Positions 29,858 to 64,000 of a stretch of DNA of 64,000 nt are shown here, in pieces. Source of the DNA: Escherichia coli (lineage in GTDB: Bacteria > Pseudomonadota > Gammaproteobacteria > Enterobacterales > Enterobacteriaceae); the NCBI RefSeq assembly GCF_024502345.1, contig NZ_JALDNN010000001.1, one strand, 5' to 3'. The position numbers and the translations under genes are program-made. Each line of letters opens with the position of its first letter. The stretch's first letter is position 1. Below the pieces are notes generated by a model, which had not been told where the DNA came from, ran no database searches, and worked only from the letters and a program-made list of their open reading frames with translations.

Positions 29858-32353
29858 ATGTTAACGATTCAATTTCTCTGTCCTTTGCCTAACGGTCTAC
29901 ATGCTCGTCCGGCGTGGGAACTTAAAGAACAGTGCAGCCAGTGGCAAAGCGAAATCACTTTTATTAACCATCGCCAGAACGCAAAGGCCGATGCCAAAAG
30001 CTCGCTGGCGCTGATTGGCACCGGCACCCTATTTAATGACAGTTGCAGCCTGAACATTAGCGGCAGCGATGAAGAGCAGGCGCGGCGCGTGCTGGAAGAG
30101 TACATCCAGGTGCGCTTTATCGACAGCGACAGCGTTCAGCCTACGCAGGCAGAACTGACGGCGCATCCGCTGCCGCGTTCATTAAGCCGCCTTAACCCGG
30201 ATTTACTGTACGGCAATGTGCTGGCAAGCGGCGTCGGCGTGGGTACGCTGACCCTGTTACAAAGCGACAGCCTCGACAGTTATCGGGCAATCCCCGCCAG
30301 TGCGCAAGATTCCACCCGGCTGGAGCACAGCCTGGCAACGCTTGCCGAGCAACTGAACCAGCAATTGCGTGAGCGTGACGGCGAAAGCAAAACTATCCTC
30401 AGCGCCCATTTGTCGCTGATTCAGGATGATGAATTTGCAGGCAATATCCGTCGCCTGATGACAGAACAGCATCAGGGGCTGGGGGCGGCGATCATCAGCA
30501 ATATGGAGCAGGTTTGCGCCAAACTTTCTGCTTCTGCCAGCGATTATCTGCGCGAACGTGTTAGCGACATTCGCGATATTAGCGAACAGTTGCTGCATAT
30601 TACCTGGCCGGAACTGAAGCCGCGCAACAATCTGGTGCTGGAAAAACCGACTATTCTGGTGGCCGAGGATTTAACCCCAAGCCAGTTTTTAAGCCTGGAT
30701 TTAAAAAATCTTGCGGGCATGATTCTGGAGAAAACCGGGCGCACCTCGCATACCCTGATTCTGGCCCGCGCCTCGGCGATCCCGGTACTGAGCGGCCTGC
30801 CGCTGGATGCGATTGCCCGTTATGCCGGGCAACCTGCAGTGCTTGACGCCCAGTGCGGCGTGCTGGCGATTAACCCGAATGACGCGGTGAGCGGTTATTA
30901 TCAGGTCGCGCAGACGCTGGCGGATAAACGCCAAAAACAACAGGCGCAGGCTGCCGCGCAGCTGGCTTATTCCCGTGATAACAAGCGTATTGATATCGCG
31001 GCGAATATTGGCACCGCTCTGGAAGCGCCTGGCGCGTTTGCAAACGGCGCGGAAGGCGTCGGGCTGTTCCGTACCGAAATGCTCTATATGGATCGCGACA
31101 GCGCGCCGGACGAGCAGGAGCAATTTGAAGCCTACCAGCAGGTGCTACTGGCAGCGGGCGACAAGCCGATTATCTTCCGCACAATGGACATCGGAGGCGA
31201 TAAAAGCATTCCTTATCTGAATATTCCCCAGGAAGAGAACCCGTTCCTTGGCTATCGCGCGGTACGTATTTACCCGGAATTTGCTGGTCTGTTCCGCACT
31301 CAACTGCGGGCCATTTTGCGCGCCGCCAGTTTCGGCAACGCCCAGTTGATGATCCCGATGGTTCACAGCCTCGATCAGATCTTATGGGTGAAGGGCGAGA
31401 TCCAAAAAGCGATCGTTGAGCTTAAGCGCGATGGCCTGCGTCATGCAGAGACGATTACGCTGGGTATCATGGTGGAAGTGCCGTCGGTGTGCTACATCAT
31501 CGACCACTTCTGCGATGAGGTCGATTTCTTCAGTATCGGCTCCAACGATATGACCCAGTATCTGTATGCGGTAGATCGTAATAACCCGCGCGTATCGCCG
31601 CTGTATAACCCGATTACGCCATCGTTCCTGCGCATGTTGCAGCAGATAGTTACCACTGCGCATCAGCGAGGCAAATGGGTAGGCATTTGCGGTGAACTGG
31701 GCGGTGAAAGCCGTTATCTGCCGCTACTGCTTGGGCTGGGCCTGGATGAGCTGAGTATGAGTAGCCCGCGCATTCCGGCGGTGAAAAGCCAGCTTCGTCA
31801 ACTGGATAGCGAGGCGTGTCGGGAACTGGCACGTCAGGCGTGTGAATGTCGCAGCGCGCAGGAAATTGAAGCGTTACTCACCGCCTTTACGCCGGAAGAA
31901 GACGTTCGCCCGCTGCTGGCGCTGGAGAATATCTTCGTTGATCAGGCCTTTAGCAATAAAGAGCAGGCGATCCAGTTCCTGTGCGGTAACCTCGGCGTTA
32001 ACGGGCGCACTGAACATCCGTTCGAGCTGGAAGAGGATGTCTGGCAGCGGGCAGAGATTGTCACCACTGGCGTTGGTTTTGGCGTGGCGATCCCGCACAC
32101 CAAATCTCAGTGGATCCGTCATTCCAGTATCAGCATTGCCCGGCTGGCGAAACCGGTTGACTGGCAGTCAGAAATGGGCGAAGTCGAACTGGTGATCATG
32201 CTGACGCTGGGTGCTAACGAAGGGATGAATCATGTGAAAGTCTTCTCGCAGCTGGCGCGTAAACTGGTGAATAAAAACTTCCGCCAGTCGTTGTTTGCCG
32301 CGCAAGATGCACAAAGTATCCTGACGCTGCTGGAAACAGAATTAACCTTCTGA
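29858..32353 (+). CDS. fryA: multiphosphoryl-transfer PTS protein (HPr-like, enzyme I-like and EIIA-like domains fused)
   Basis: 831 aa; N-terminal HPr-like domain (LHARPAWEL), central enzyme I homology (…GRTSHTLILARA…, …RTMDIGGDK…), C-terminal EIIA-Fru-like domain. Confidence 0.93.
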   Translation: MLTIQFLCPLPNGLHARPAWELKEQCSQWQSEITFINHRQNAKADAKSSLALIGTGTLFNDSCSLNISGSDEEQARRVLEEYIQVRFIDSDSVQPTQAELTAHPLPRSLSRLNPDLLYGNVLASGVGVGTLTLLQSDSLDSYRAIPASAQDSTRLEHSLATLAEQLNQQLRERDGESKTILSAHLSLIQDDEFAGNIRRLMTEQHQGLGAAIISNMEQVCAKLSASASDYLRERVSDIRDISEQLLHITWPELKPRNNLVLEKPTILVAEDLTPSQFLSLDLKNLAGMILEKTGRTSHTLILARASAIPVLSGLPLDAIARYAGQPAVLDAQCGVLAINPNDAVSGYYQVAQTLADKRQKQQAQAAAQLAYSRDNKRIDIAANIGTALEAPGAFANGAEGVGLFRTEMLYMDRDSAPDEQEQFEAYQQVLLAAGDKPIIFRTMDIGGDKSIPYLNIPQEENPFLGYRAVRIYPEFAGLFRTQLRAILRAASFGNAQLMIPMVHSLDQILWVKGEIQKAIVELKRDGLRHAETITLGIMVEVPSVCYIIDHFCDEVDFFSIGSNDMTQYLYAVDRNNPRVSPLYNPITPSFLRMLQQIVTTAHQRGKWVGICGELGGESRYLPLLLGLGLDELSMSSPRIPAVKSQLRQLDSEACRELARQACECRSAQEIEALLTAFTPEEDVRPLLALENIFVDQAFSNKEQAIQFLCGNLGVNGRTEHPFELEEDVWQRAEIVTTGVGFGVAIPHTKSQWIRHSSISIARLAKPVDWQSEMGEVELVIMLTLGANEGMNHVKVFSQLARKLVNKNFRQSLFAAQDAQSILTLLETELTF

Positions 32354-32355
32354 CG

Positions 32356-33213
32356 TTAGCCCTGAAAACGGGCGCTGTACTCTCCCGGCGTCAGACCAAA
32401 CTGACGCCGGAAAACGCGACAAAAATAGTCGCTATCCGGAAAACCGCAACGCTGTGCCACTTCATGAATTGACAGATGATATTTCTGCAAAATCATCCTC
32501 GCCTTCGCCATTCGCACCCAACGCACATACTCGATAAAACGCATCGTTCCATGCTGAGCAAACAGTTTTGACAGATGATTGGGCGTGATATTAAAAAACT
32601 GCGCCACGCTCTCGCGGGTGAGCGGCTGGGCATAATTATCCTGAACCCAGTTACAAATGCTGTGATAGAGAAAATCGCCGCGCGGCTGCGAATTGCCCGG
32701 CGGCATATTCACCACGTTACGGCAAAGATGCAGCAAACTTAACACCAGCGGCTGAATGATATTTTGCTCCAGCGGCGAACGGCTAAGATGGGTGAGGGCG
32801 GTAAGCATCGCTTCACCTTCACCGCGTTGCAGGCTGGGAAGCTGGATCTGGCGAGCAGGATGCAACAACGACGTGGTGCGGCTATCGTAAAACGATAACC
32901 CAAGCCAGGTCGGAGCGAACACCAGGCTTAACAGCATCACCGGTTTGTTGTTGACCGGTAAATTAGCCGCGCGCGCCGGAATAAACAGCATTTCTCCTTC
33001 CACCAAACGTTGCTGCTTTGCTTCCAGCAGATTGCCGTATTCGCCGCGCAGCACGATATCCAGACGGGGAAAATCAATACATAAACTGCCCACCGGCAAC
33101 GAGGCAGGCTGGCTGGCAAACCAGACGCGCCCCAGTAGTTGCGGGTTAAGCACCAGGCCGCTGAACAGATCGGCGAAAAATTGTTGATCGGCGGGCAAGC
33201 CTGGTGCTTTCAT
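32356..33213 (-). CDS. ypdC: AraC-family transcriptional regulator YpdC
   Basis: 285 aa with C-terminal AraC-type HTH. Confidence 0.88.
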   Translation of the reverse strand: MKAPGLPADQQFFADLFSGLVLNPQLLGRVWFASQPASLPVGSLCIDFPRLDIVLRGEYGNLLEAKQQRLVEGEMLFIPARAANLPVNNKPVMLLSLVFAPTWLGLSFYDSRTTSLLHPARQIQLPSLQRGEGEAMLTALTHLSRSPLEQNIIQPLVLSLLHLCRNVVNMPPGNSQPRGDFLYHSICNWVQDNYAQPLTRESVAQFFNITPNHLSKLFAQHGTMRFIEYVRWVRMAKARMILQKYHLSIHEVAQRCGFPDSDYFCRVFRRQFGLTPGEYSARFQG

Positions 33214-33225
33214 GAAAGTTCCCGA

Positions 33226-33978
33226 TTAAAGATGCATTAACTGGCGGAATTCTTTAACTTTGCTGCGGCTGACCGGCACTTCAAAATCCAGATCTTTCAG
33301 CCGCAGAATATAGGTGTTATTAAACCACGGTTCGATTTCGCGGATTTTGTTCAGATTGACACAAAATGAGCGATGGCAGCGGAAAAAATGCGACGGCGGC
33401 AGTTTGCTGCAAAATTCGGTAATGTTCATCGGCATTACGTAGGATTCACGCCGCGTATAGACAAAGGTCATTTTCTCGTGCGCTTCGGCGTAATAGATAT
33501 CGTTAATTGGCGTGACGATGATTCGCTCATCTTTCACCAGATTAATGGTGTCATTCTCACGCGTTACCGTCGCGGCAGGCGTGCTGCTGGTCTGCTGTTG
33601 TTGCCAGGCCGCTTCCAGTTTTTGCAGCATCCCGGTAATGCGTGACTCCTGATACGGTTTGAGAATGTATTCAAACGCCTCCAGTTCAAACGCTTCTACC
33701 GCATGTTCTTTCCACGCGGTGATGAACACAATAAACGGTTTATGGGCGAACTGGCTGATGTTTTGCGCCAGCAACACACCATCCAGCGACGGAATATTGA
33801 TATCCAGAAAAATGGCGTCGACGCGGTTATGCTGCAAAAACTTCAACACGTCCAGACCGTCGTCAAAGGTGCCGACAATCTCCATCTGGCTGTGCTCTTT
33901 AATTAGCCAGCTCAGTTCCTGTTGTGCCAGGAATTCGTCTTCAACAATGATGACTTTCACAATATCACTCCGGCTCAA
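33226..33978 (-). CDS. ypdB: LytTR-family response regulator YpdB
   Basis: Receiver domain (…VIIVEDEF…) plus C-terminal LytTR DNA-binding domain; the true start may be an internal GTG about 6 codons into the listed ORF. Confidence 0.9.
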
Positions 33979-35672
33979 AGCAATAACGTAGCCTGTGAGG
34001 CGACTGGGGTGCGTTGGTTAGGAATGTAAAACGCAATTTCCGTTCCTGGTTCCAGGCGGCGGATATGCAGCCCCTCGCCATACAATAACTTCACGCGATG
34101 ATGGACATTCAGCAGGCCAATTTTATTGCCCGGCATTTCATTCGCTTCGACCCGCTCAATCACCTTTGGATCGATGCCGTGCCCGGTATCCCGCACCGCA
34201 ATGCGTACCCGATTGCCGCACTCTGCAACGCTGATGGTGACAACGCCTTTACCTTTGCAAGGCTGGATACCGTGGACAATGGCATTCTCCACCAACGGCT
34301 GGATCAGCAGGCTGGGAATGCAGCAATTCACCTCTTCATCAATATCATAGATAACCGTCAGCTTGTCGCCAAAGCGGGCCTGCTCAATGGCAATATAGTC
34401 TTTAATTTGATACAGCTCTTTTTTGATATCGATTTGCTCATCGTCTTTTAATTCAATGTTATAGCGCAGATAACGCGACAGATTAAAGATTAGCTGGCGA
34501 GCAGTATCCGGATTCAGACGGATTGACGATGAAATAGCGTTCAAAGCGTTAAACAGGAAATGGGGATTAATTTTGCTTTGCAGGGCGCGAAGCTCTGCCT
34601 TATTTGCCATTTCACGTAGCTGCTCGGCGCGTGAAACCTCCAGTTGCGTGGAGATGATTTGCGACAGACCAACCGCCATTTCCTGTAATGACGAGGTTAT
34701 CTGATGCGCGTGGCAGTAGTAAATTTTCAGCGTTCCGGTCACAACGCCTTTCTCCCACAATGGGATCACCAGCATGGAATGAATCTCTGGTGTGCGGTGG
34801 GCTTCATCATTGTTTTTAATGATGATTTTTCCGTAATTCATCGCCTGACGGGTAGTCGGGCTAATGAAGTCATCGCCGTTCTGATAGTTATGTTCACCCA
34901 CGCCAACATAGGCCAGCACATGATCGGTATTAGTAATCGCCACCGCATCGGCGTGAATGTCATCGCGAATAATTTCACAAACTTTGCGTAATGACTCGCT
35001 ATTGACATGGCGAAACAGAGGTAGCGTTTTGTTGGCGATATCCAGCGCCAGCTTGGCCTGCCGCGCGGCGCTGGCCTCTTTTTCGCCCTCAACGCTTTGC
35101 ACCAGAAGCACAATAAAGCCGATACAGACGCTGCCGAGGATCATTGGAATCCCGATTTTAGAGACGATATCGATCCCCAACGCGGTAGTTGGTGCCCAGA
35201 CAATCACCAGAATCATGGTCAACGTTTCACACAACATGCCGCCGAGAATACCGACGCGCCAGCGCTGTGCTTTGGGGATTTTCAGGTTGATCCAGCCCGA
35301 TATACAACCAGCCAGAATGCTGGTGATAAAGCAGGGGATCGCCGTCACGCCGCCGATATCAATTAAATAACGATGAATACCCGCAATCACGCCGGTAATG
35401 ATGCCCACCCACGGGCCAAACAGAATCCCGCCGGACATCACCGCGATAATACGTACGTTCACCAGCGAGCCTTCTACGGGAACGCCGGACCAGGTGCTGA
35501 AGAGGGCGAACAGCGAGAAAATGGCGGTAACGGCGAGCAACTCTTTCGGTGAGTGTGCCGACTTGTGCAACAGTTCGCGAAACAGGCGGATACGGATGAG
35601 AAAGAACAGGCAGATAAGCATTAACGCTGCCCGATCGAAGACCGCCAGCAGCATGTTGAATATTTCGTGCAC
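33975..35672 (-). CDS. ypdA: LytS-type sensor histidine kinase YpdA
   Basis: 565 aa; membrane N-terminus, GAF-like middle region, His-kinase core; stop overlaps ypdB start. Confidence 0.92.
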
Positions 35673-36048
35673 GGGTGACTCTGAATAAGGATTAAACCTC
35701 TATGATAGGTAACCTGAAGGCTGATGACCAGCAGGCCGTTTTTGAGGAAAAACCACAATTTTAAAAGGGGATTGATAGATAAATGGTGTATTAGCAATGC
35801 ATCTCTTGATAATGCACTTCTGGTTAGTAAATTTATTGAAATTATTATGTTAATAAAATGAGTGGTAATTTTCTTGTTAGCGCAGATAAATTTCCTGTTT
35901 TTAAAGCAGAGTTCCTCATTTAACGTCATTAATAAAAATGTTCTAAAACGCTGGACAGACAGAAATTAATCAGGCTATTTTCAAAACAGCCACCATCGTG
36001 GCAGCGTCGCTCGGACGGTCCGGGCGCTAACGTTAATCTGAGGAAATT

Positions 36049-61418: not shown

Positions 61419-62135
<717 letters not shown>

Positions 62136-62142
62136 TTAAATC

Positions 62143-62206
62143 TATCACCGCAAGGGATAAACTTCTAACACCGTGCGTGTTGACTATTTTACCTCTAGCG
62201 GTGATA
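62143..62206. promoter_or_regulatory. lambda-type right operator oR3-oR2-oR1 with pRM/pR
   Basis: tatcaccgcaagggata (OR3), taacaccgtgcgtgttg (OR2), tacctctagcggtgata (OR1, one change from lambda) between divergent cI and cro. Confidence 0.88.
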
Positions 62207-62232
62207 ATGGTTGCCTGTACTAAGGAGGTTGT

Positions 62233-62433
62233 ATGGAACAACGCATAACCCTGAAAGATTATGCAATACGCTTTGGGCAAACCAAGACGGCTAAAGATCT
62301 CGGCGTATATCAAAGCGCGATTAACAAGGCCATTCATGCAGGCCGAAAGATTTTTTTAACTATAAACGCTGATGGAAGCGTTTATGCGGAAGAAATAAAG
62401 CCCTTCCCAAGTAACAAAAAAACAACTGCATAA
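62233..62433 (+). CDS. cro: lambda-type Cro repressor
   Basis: 66-aa translation [66 protein letters not shown], two substitutions from recalled lambda Cro; RBS taaggaggttgtATG. Confidence 0.93.
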
Positions 62434-62440
62434 GTAACAC

Positions 62441-62486
62441 CGCTCTTTTCACAATGGACATTCGTCCTACGTCGCTGACAAAGCGA
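62441..62486 (+). promoter_or_regulatory. nutR-like site: boxA-like cgctcttt plus P22-type boxB hairpin
   Basis: cgctcttttcac… then tcgctgacaaagcga (5-bp stem, GACAA loop), unlike the lambda boxB gccctgaaaaagggc. Confidence 0.5.
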
Positions 62487-62570
62487 GCCCCAAGATATCT
62501 GACCAACTAAGGCCATATGCGTTTCCACGCATACCTTTCAACTAACTATTCACTATTGGAAAATTAACAA

Positions 62571-62867
62571 ATGACACAAGCAAGTTATAGCAAGCCAACA
62601 CAGCGAGAAATTGATCGCGCTGAAACTGATTTACTCATCAACCTGTCAACGCTTACCCAGCGCGGTCTGGCAAAGATGATTGGCTGTCATGAATCGAAGA
62701 TAAGCAGAACGGACTGGAGATTTATTGCTTCGGTCTTGTGTGCTTTCGGAATGGCATCAGACATCAGTCCGATTAGCAGGGCTTTTAAGTATGCATTGGA
62801 TGGAATCACAAAGAAAAAATCCCCGGCTGCCACCGAGGATTCTGAGCAAATTGATATGCAATTCTGA
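62571..62867 (+). CDS. cII: CII-like transcriptional activator (divergent from lambda CII)
   Basis: 98-aa ORF in the cII position; C-terminus KKSPAATEDSEQIDMQF parallels lambda CII KKRPAATERSEQIQMEF, the rest is divergent. Confidence 0.6.
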   Translation: MTQASYSKPTQREIDRAETDLLINLSTLTQRGLAKMIGCHESKISRTDWRFIASVLCAFGMASDISPISRAFKYALDGITKKKSPAATEDSEQIDMQF

Positions 62868-62888
62868 GGGAATTACTGGATCAATCCA

Positions 62889-63062
62889 CAGGAGTAATTA
62901 TGACAAAACGTCGTAAGAAATACCAGGAAAAAGAAGAGATTCGACACCCTGATTCACCTGAGGGATTAGTGGTAGCCGCAGCAAATAACAGGGCGTTCGC
63001 AGAGCGCCTTGTTGGTGTTTACAGACTAGCCAAAGCAGGAGTGAAACATGGGCGTCGTTAAG
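62889..63062 (+). CDS. hypothetical small basic protein (58 aa)
   Basis: ORF MTKRRKKYQEKEEIRHPDSPEGL… with RBS acaggagtaattATG; stop overlaps the start of the next ORF. Below the ORF-track cutoff. Confidence 0.35.
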
Positions 63063-64000
63063 TTAGCTGATTACAGGCCTCAACTGGAGGTCGTGGAGCA
63101 TCGCGTGGCAGATACCGAAGATGGTTTCATGCGCGTTGCTAACGAGATTACTCAATATCCAGACCAGATTGAATCCGTTCGTAAAGGCATGGGATTCATT
63201 GATGAAGACCAGCGTAATTCTATCGGCACCTTAGCGGCTGGCGCACGCCTTGCGTCATCGTCTCCAGAAGCAATGCAATCATGGCTGCAAAACAACGCCG
63301 GTGAGTTAGCTCGTGTTGGCGTTAATCCTCATGACGTCGCTCAGATGTACCAACAGAACCCGCGGCAGTTCGTCGAATTTGTCGATCACCTGGGGATGAA
63401 CAGTCTCGGGCCCGAAAAATACTTTGACCTACAGGATAAAATGCAGGGTCGCCAGGTTACCATGCGCGGTCAGGATCTGGATTCGCAAACCGCCGCTCGG
63501 AATCAGGCAATCACAATGCGCGGACAAGATATCCAGGCGAATTTAGGTCAGCAGCGCATTAATCTGGACGCAGAAACAAACCGCATTAACAACGAAAATA
63601 AGCGCCTTGACCGGATGCTATCAGCAGAAACTAACGACCTGAAGCGCCAGGAAATACAGAGCCGCATAGCAGCCAACAACCAGCAGTTGCAGCAGAAGCA
63701 GCAAGCGCTAAATGATGGCTACAAAGACGGCATCAACACCCTCACAACCAGCATGTTCACTCTGAACGATATCGTTAGTTCTCCTTCACTTAAGAGCATT
63801 ACAGGCTTACGTGGAGTAATCCCCAACGTTCCAGGCTCACAGGCTGCAGACACTCAGGCACGACTTGATACCTTTAAATCACAAGCATACCTGACAGCGG
63901 TTCAGGCCATGCGAGGCATGGGCGCACTTTCTGATGCCGAGGGCAAAAAGCTCGACCAGGCTGTTGGTTCGCTGCAGAACTCGCAGAGCGAGGAGTCCTT
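63048..64000 (+). CDS. hypothetical phage protein, 3' end outside window; Q-rich with internal tandem repeat
   Basis: Frame open from ATG at 63048 (RBS aggagtgaaacATG) to the window end (over 317 codons); contains repeats TMRGQDLDSQ / TMRGQDIQAN; no similarity to lambda O. Confidence 0.5.
   Translation, partial: MGVVKLADYRPQLEVVEHRVADTEDGFMRVANEITQYPDQIESVRKGMGFIDEDQRNSIGTLAAGARLASSSPEAMQSWLQNNAGELARVGVNPHDVAQMYQQNPRQFVEFVDHLGMNSLGPEKYFDLQDKMQGRQVTMRGQDLDSQTAARNQAITMRGQDIQANLGQQRINLDAETNRINNENKRLDRMLSAETNDLKRQEIQSRIAANNQQLQQKQQALNDGYKDGINTLTTSMFTLNDIVSSPSLKSITGLRGVIPNVPGSQAADTQARLDTFKSQAYLTAVQAMRGMGALSDAEGKKLDQAVGSLQNSQSEES

Follow-up and report, generated by a model that had tools for sequence, protein, structure and literature searches.

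The gene that follows cII near the end of the window (the whole 64,000-nt stretch of E. coli DNA analysed here) is very probably a deletion scar produced by ordinary prophage decay, in which the start of the early replication gene O has been joined to the late gene 20. The best explanation of the locus as a whole, in which we place high confidence, is an internal deletion of ~19 kb in a P22-like prophage (Lederbergvirus, of the HK620/Sf101/IME10 type) at the tRNA-Arg gene argW; the window ends inside this defective element, and the deletion would have left a functionless fusion ORF. The appropriate annotation for the ORF is a fusion pseudogene (O'-'gene 20) in a defective argW prophage; labels such as replication protein, moron or new repeat protein would be wrong. 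The protein family itself is nothing new.

An in-frame fusion of O and gene 20 follows cII

The early region reads cI (on the minus strand), cro, cII, a small basic ORF and the long ORF (Table 1), and window 61423-63151 is 97.7% identical to phage HK97. An earlier note on this DNA had recorded a basic ORF of 58 aa after cII, translationally coupled to a long, Q-rich ORF that runs off the window. The small ORF is indeed basic (14 K+R vs 6 D+E) and its 3' end overlaps the start of the long ORF by 14 nt, but it is 53 aa long and corresponds to HK97 gp53. The long ORF is Q-rich and open-ended as described: it opens at the ATG at 63048, with a GGAG 8 nt upstream, meets no stop before the window ends, and closes 193 nt beyond it, at the equivalent of 64193, in two sequences that carry the locus further (L004 and L006). 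The complete product is 381 aa long, and 10.8% of it is Q.

We searched window 62500-64000 (1501 nt) by megablast against phage records and 5,426 complete RefSeq E. coli genomes. Window 62500-63151 matched the cII-gp53-O region of HK97 at 99.1% identity, and window 63149-64000 matched gene 20 of phages IME10, APC_JM3.2 and Sf101 at ~99.5%, along with many E. coli prophages. The gene 20 matches, which included phages Dewey and Huey, were 98-99.5% identical and were annotated either "DNA ejection protein" or "released from the phage upon host infection". No record covered both halves of the query. The halves part at query positions 650-652, and at positions 90-92 of a 181-nt query centred on the breakpoint, whose halves were each 100% identical to either a "replication protein" or a "phage DNA ejection protein" gene. 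A three-way alignment shows an abrupt switch at the trinucleotide common to both sides, TAC, which in annotation coordinates is nt 102-104 in O and nt 288-290 in gene 20; the codon phase agrees at the two positions, and the reading frame therefore carries through the fusion. In the product, O residues 1-34 are followed by a shared threonine and then by gp20 residues 98-443, that is, O(1-34)::gp20(97-443), where the full-length parents measure 273 aa (HK97 O) and 443 aa (IME10 gp20).

Profile searches of the complete product agreed with this layout. Three "replication initiation O-like" PHROGs matched residues 1-35, phrog_2534 matched residues 34-375 (profile positions 98-435 of 435, E = 1.3e-140), and Pfam Inj_translocase (PF16928) matched at model positions 87-217 of 218 (E = 4.2e-30). 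A protein database search with the partial ORF returned best matches that span the gp20 part only (89% of the query), and the fusion protein itself was retrieved only by exact look-up, its full sequence being known from IMG/VR. A PDB sequence search with an IME10-type gp20 gave no match.

The two genes stand far apart in an intact P22-like prophage that occupies the same argW/csc site in E. coli S56 (NZ_CP010242.1, 4452712-4489494). Its gene order is argW-intS-gtrABC-tailspike-arc-gp16-gp20-gp7-gp14-needle-gp10-gp4-coat-scaffold-portal-terminase-lysis-Q-nin-helicase-O-gp53-cII-cro-cI-...-torI-cscB, and in a BLAST alignment with the remnant a stretch of 19.1 kb, exactly between O and gp20, stays unmatched. 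The O gene of S56 departs from the HK97 type after ~30 nt, and S56 is not the exact ancestor.

These results bear on what the earlier note had made of the gene. Its statement that the ORF has no resemblance to lambda O fails for the first 34 codons, which are the N-terminus of an HK97-type O, and is right for the rest, which is gp20. Among the origins it had considered, a deletion that brought a late-region gene up against the early region is borne out by the breakpoint and by S56, where ~19 kb separates the two genes and both keep this order and orientation. Neither of its other suggestions, a moron or a different replication function, is supported: the product matches Inj_translocase and phrog_2534 from residue 34, and iterons are lacking. 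Nor did either of the outcomes that the note had named as contrary to its proposals turn up: the extended 381-aa product is not a replication initiator, matching the O-like PHROGs at residues 1-35 only, and it is not a structural protein in an intact late operon, as the late operon is not intact.

Table 1. Features of the prophage remnant within the window (window coordinates).
Feature	Position	Strand	Evidence or remark
att core-like sequence CTGCAGGGGACACCAG, prophage end	59069..59084	-	One mismatch to the KplE1 core CTGCAGGGGACACCAT
torI-type excisionase (recombination directionality factor), 66 aa	59158..59358	-	E. coli counterparts annotated torI
114-aa phrog_1229 protein gene	59494-59838	-	Early-left gene
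97-aa DUF551 protein gene	59939-60232	-	Early-left gene
Lambda-type OL operators at putative pL	60381..60421		Operator matches, e.g. TATCACCGCCAGTGGTA
bstA-like abortive-infection pseudogene, three ORFs of 113, 101 and 103 aa	60628..61387	-	Just beyond cI
Lambda/HK97-type cI repressor, 237 aa, apparently intact	61419..62132	-	Pfam HTH_3 and Peptidase_S24 (identical gene of L006)
OR operators and putative pR promoter	62143..62206		Operator matches; HK97 annotates OR at the same place
cro, 66 aa	62233..62433	+	Pfam Cro
cII, 98 aa	62571..62867	+	Pfam Phage_CII
gp53-type basic ORF, 53 aa, of unknown function, native partner of O	62900..63061	+	phrog_1331, E = 1.4e-37
O' (RBS, start codon and first 34 codons of an HK97-type replication initiator)	63048..63151	+	Identical to HK97 O here
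Deletion junction, TAC microhomology	63149..63151	+	Three-way alignment; common to O and gene 20
'gp20, P22-type ejection protein gene from codon 97	63149..64000	+	ORF runs on past the window

The junction recurs in independent assemblies

Megablast with the 1501-nt and the 181-nt query found no junction-spanning record among the 5,426 complete E. coli genomes. An exact search with a 41-mer spanning the breakpoint, GCGCGTTGCTAACGAGATTACTCAATATCCAGACCAGATTG, found the junction on one IMG/VR contig (UViG 2671181030_000005). Over the 6,619 bases that contig and window share there are 2 differences, at 59071 and 60403, one of them within the att core-like sequence, and the contig continues for another 6,211 bases. 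By exact-sequence look-up, the identical 381-aa protein was found on 10 metagenome contigs from 9 samples (ENA and Logan). The neighbours are constant in all copies (cI-cro-cII-gp53-fusion-gp16 fragment), copies of the fusion gene differ by one synonymous SNP, found in two contigs, and the ORF is free of stops and frameshifts in every near-identical copy. The junction is therefore clonal and marks a single recent lineage.

Its absence from all of the complete RefSeq genomes would fit an assembly or chimera artefact. Against this, different pipelines assembled the same junction independently (an isolate-derived contig from IMG and ten ENA/Logan contigs), and these contigs have identical flanks and reach kilobases to either side of it. 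Because independent assemblies share the junction, we give the artefact explanation practically no weight. The junction sequence can be taken as a specific marker of one E. coli lineage, one that recurs in metagenomes and is absent from 5,426 complete genomes.

The locus has neither an initiator nor an origin

The earlier note had drawn attention to a tandem TMRGQD repeat in the long ORF and had proposed looking for iterons within the gene. The motif is present, but it is not tandem: its two copies, at 63459-63476 and 63513-63530, lie 54 nt (18 aa) apart and share 83% nucleotide identity. A second repeat pair has the same 54-nt spacing, at 63570 and 63624. The gp20 region 63459-63674 can be read as four consecutive 18-aa units (TMRGQDLDSQTAARNQAI, TMRGQDIQANLGQQRINL, DAETNRINNENKRLDRML and SAETNDLKRQEIQSRIAA), the first resembling the second and the third resembling the fourth. 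Such units are also found in intact gp20 proteins and represent an old internal duplication.

The 54-nt-spaced repeats are native to intact gp20 (protein P0003) and are not iterons. Tandem Repeats Finder reported only a trivial CAG-rich CAGCAGAAG run, and tandem and direct-repeat scans of 62800-64000 found no iteron-like repeats, so the iterons looked for inside the ORF are not there. HK97 O carries four ~18-nt iterons at nt 340-424 of the gene, only 104 nt of which are retained here, and a search of the window for the HK97 iteron consensus, allowing up to 3 mismatches, gave 0 matches. Since the HK97 O iterons fall in the deleted part of the gene and have no match in the window, the origin is gone. 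The idea of the ORF as an iteron-bearing gene or origin was ruled out, the native gp20 repeats and the CAG-rich run being all that was found.

An O-type initiator would be a full-length protein of ~270-300 aa with an N-terminal DNA-binding domain, of which residues 1-35 are the only trace, and would be followed by a helicase or helicase-loader gene (P/DnaB-like). The gene next to the fusion encodes a fragment of gp16 that carries an SLT domain. The locus contains neither an initiator nor an origin.

The fusion lies in a decaying prophage between cscB and argW

The remnant measures ~10.1 kb and lies between cscB and argW in the E. coli chromosome, adjoining the csc sucrose genes, which are absent from K-12. 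Its ends are those of a KplE1-type element, for which the att core sequence has been published (PMC2951348). The 16-nt core is duplicated in argW fashion, one copy carrying the mismatch noted in Table 1 and the other, a perfect copy at the opposite end, overlapping the 3' end of a tRNA-Arg(CCT) gene (L006 14297-14372). The integrase gene intS (385-397 aa) adjoins argW, and the torI-type excisionase gene stands at the opposite, csc end. An inventory of L006 against S56 shows that the replication, lysis and particle genes are missing. A satellite of the PICI or P4-like kind was considered and rejected, as no replication or packaging-redirection gene lies between the att core and argW.

Several parts of the remnant appear intact, namely cI, cro and cII with their operators, torI, intS, a gene for an Arc/Mnt-type repressor, the gene for a 696-aa tailspike and that for a 161-aa lipoprotein. 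Others are broken. The three bstA pieces match phrog_6287 (BstA) at positions 6-121, 164-253 and 245-301 of 304, and the PADLOC BstA model also matches; ~40 BstA profile positions are missing between the first and the second piece. Gp16 is cut to 151 aa and matches profile positions 1-145 of 576. This second deletion scar, at L006 9363-9818 (~1.2-1.6 kb past the window), cuts the gp16 transglycosylase ejection protein at about codon 146 and joins it to sequence found just downstream of intact gene 16 in phage Gally (intergenic). The join lies at an imperfect 12-nt homology, CCTCTGCAAAGG vs CCTCTGCATAGG, and creates a perfect 16-nt palindrome, GCAAAGGTACCTTTGC.

P22-like prophages carry sieA-type exclusion genes between genes 16 and 9. 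The gene found between genes 16 and 9 here is that of the 161-aa predicted lipoprotein (L006 9811-10296, minus strand; phrog_6067, of unknown function). By its description the lipoprotein is not SieA-like, and PADLOC gives no match for it; it may be a moron expressed from the prophage.

We assigned promoters and nut sites by analogy with lambda, and these assignments are to be read as putative. A promoter-like site, TTGACT-17-GATAAT, lies at L006 7349-7377 (window 62180-62208). On the left, a boxB-like GCGCTGACAAAGCGC at ~60296-60310 is followed directly by the DUF551 start codon, and the same boxB core, GCTGACAAAGC, is found downstream of cro at 62474-62484. There is no N gene between pL/OL and the DUF551 gene, and other pL-operon genes are missing as well: S56 carries cIII, kil and recombination genes in its pL operon, and the remnant is without them. 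With no N gene, pL would drive the DUF551 gene, the 114-aa ORF and torI without antitermination, and this set could be a putative compact SOS-inducible excision cassette. The truncated gp16, the broken bstA and the missing N all represent further decay, which supports reading the fusion as a scar without function.

A single deletion would account for the locus

From the comparison with S56 we infer that the ancestor was a complete P22-like prophage at argW and that the change was a deletion. Illegitimate recombination at the 3-nt TAC microhomology would have removed ~19 kb in one event, from codon 35 of an HK97-type O to codon 96 of gene 20. Lost in this event would be the remainder of O with the origin iterons, the helicase/loader gene, nin, Q, the lysis genes, terminase, portal, scaffold and coat, as well as the head-completion and needle genes, gene 7 and the N-terminus of gp20. 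The fusion would have kept the RBS, the start codon and the gp53 overlap of O, and because the frames of O and gene 20 would coincide by chance, the scar reads as one 381-aa ORF. With replication, lysis and particle formation lost, the element would be locked in the chromosome.

The promoter pR lies ~840 nt upstream of the fusion ORF, which stands behind an intact cI of the LexA family. The ORF should be silent in the lysogen; any expression would come only after SOS derepression, and transcription would then be weak at most, because no N gene remains. Its product probably has no function of its own, because 34 residues of O cannot form a DNA-binding initiator and because gp20 works only when packaged and ejected, while the particle genes are gone. 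In the phage, gp20 is a packaged virion protein that is ejected and becomes part of a trans-periplasmic conduit (PMC10461980).

The biologically meaningful consequence falls on the prophage and not on the protein. The locus offers a clean, datable case in which a microhomology-mediated deletion would have immobilised a P22-like prophage at a stroke, with immunity, the int/xis module and the tailspike left in place. Beyond annotation, the finding matters little.

The protein would have a role if truncated gp20 had been co-opted as a defence or exclusion factor that blocks the ejection-protein conduit of superinfecting P22-like phages. The frame is intact, the native translation signals of O are retained, and the allele persists in a lineage represented by at least 9 samples; the retained frame, for which a random deletion has a one-in-three chance, could reflect selection. 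Persistence does not imply selection, because the copies are clonal. It has been proposed that gp20 forms parallel extended subunits with an essential C-terminal region, which is retained here (PMC10461980), and the remnant has other potential for defence or exclusion in its cI immunity, its bstA relic and the lipoprotein gene at the sieA position. However, the ORF sits behind pR under an intact cI, with no internal promoter-like site found in the ORF, and the N antiterminator is missing. The site of action of incoming gp20 is the periplasm (PMC10461980), yet the product has no signal sequence, and the neighbours gp16 and bstA are plainly decaying. The PADLOC defence models returned nothing convincing for the fusion and the lipoprotein gene, the fusion giving only a marginal HamA match (E = 0.0036). 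We regard such co-option as very unlikely. It is extremely improbable that O'::'gp20, alone or together with the N-terminal transglycosylase fragment of gp16, acts after SOS induction as a dominant-negative decoy against the P22-like DNA-delivery conduit; if it did, the decoy would be a domesticated virion-protein fragment serving as a defence factor.

The composition of the fusion also lends itself to a history of two co-resident prophages, an HK97-like siphovirus and a P22-like podovirus, whose recombination removed the stretch of chromosome that separated them. The siphovirus HK97 is closest to the O' part (99.1%) and Lederbergvirus phages to the gp20 part, and many E. coli genomes hold both kinds of sequence at separate places. 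Yet P22-like prophages at argW naturally carry a cII-gp53-O early region, S56 being collinear on both sides of the breakpoint, and the remnant is bounded by a single matched att/argW pair, torI and intS standing at opposite ends. The host genes csc, yfdC and mlaA are normally arranged and no chromosomal segment is missing. We therefore consider recombination between two prophages to be highly doubtful; an internal deletion is more parsimonious, and one such event gives the simplest history.

Comparison with known systems

Measured against its two parents, the fusion is an incomplete member of each family. Like the gp20 family (PF16928; IME10, Sf101, HK620), it matches the family profile, and its residues 35-381 are ~99% identical to residues 97-443 of the IME10 type, including the C-terminal region reported to be essential in P22 (PMC10461980). 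Unlike gp20, it has 34 residues of O in place of the first 96, and it lies in the early pR operon, not in a late operon between gene 7 and a complete gene 16 in the company of head genes; the particle genes that gp20 needs (coat, portal, gp7 and intact gp16) are gone from the remnant. With HK97 gp54, P22 gp18 and lambda O it shares its place after cII and gp53, the RBS, the start codon and the first 34 codons. It differs from HK97 O in that only 34 of the 273 codons are kept and in that the iterons and the partner helicase gene have been deleted.

Two other chimeric gp20 proteins came to light. P0001 (542 aa) has an apparent gp7-type N-terminus joined to gp20, and P0023 (375 aa) has an N-terminus with a needle-knob domain (PF16532) joined further into gp20. 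Both look like deletion scars that arose separately, in further P22-like prophages, and they underline that deletion scars in gp20 are common.

The S56 prophage resembles the remnant in site, order and orientation, the gp20/gp16 segment being 99.7% and the cII-gp53-O' segment 96.6% identical. It differs in keeping the ~19 kb between O and gp20, a full 797-aa gp16, gtrABC and the full pL operon. A wholly different prophage, with myovirus-type baseplate genes, occupies the same torI/csc site at 1503000-1552000 of NZ_CP109924.1, the complete genome closest to the window backbone (100% over window 30000-36000), in which cscB is interrupted by ISKpn26. This genome illustrates rapid prophage turnover at argW.

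The closest known counterpart in kind is KplE1/CPS-53 of E. coli K-12, with which the remnant shares the argW site, the att core, the intS/torI arrangement and a size of ~10 kb (PMC2951348); a recombination module of this type has been described for KplE1, HK620, Sf6 and CUS-3 (PMC2951348). The cI module is missing from KplE1, and SOS does not induce that prophage (PMC2951348); the remnant keeps cI, cro, cII, OL and OR, and it differs in its other retained genes and in its breakpoints. Both are deletion remnants of P22/HK620-like phages, and the element described here is a further defective argW prophage of the well-known KplE1/CPS-53 kind.
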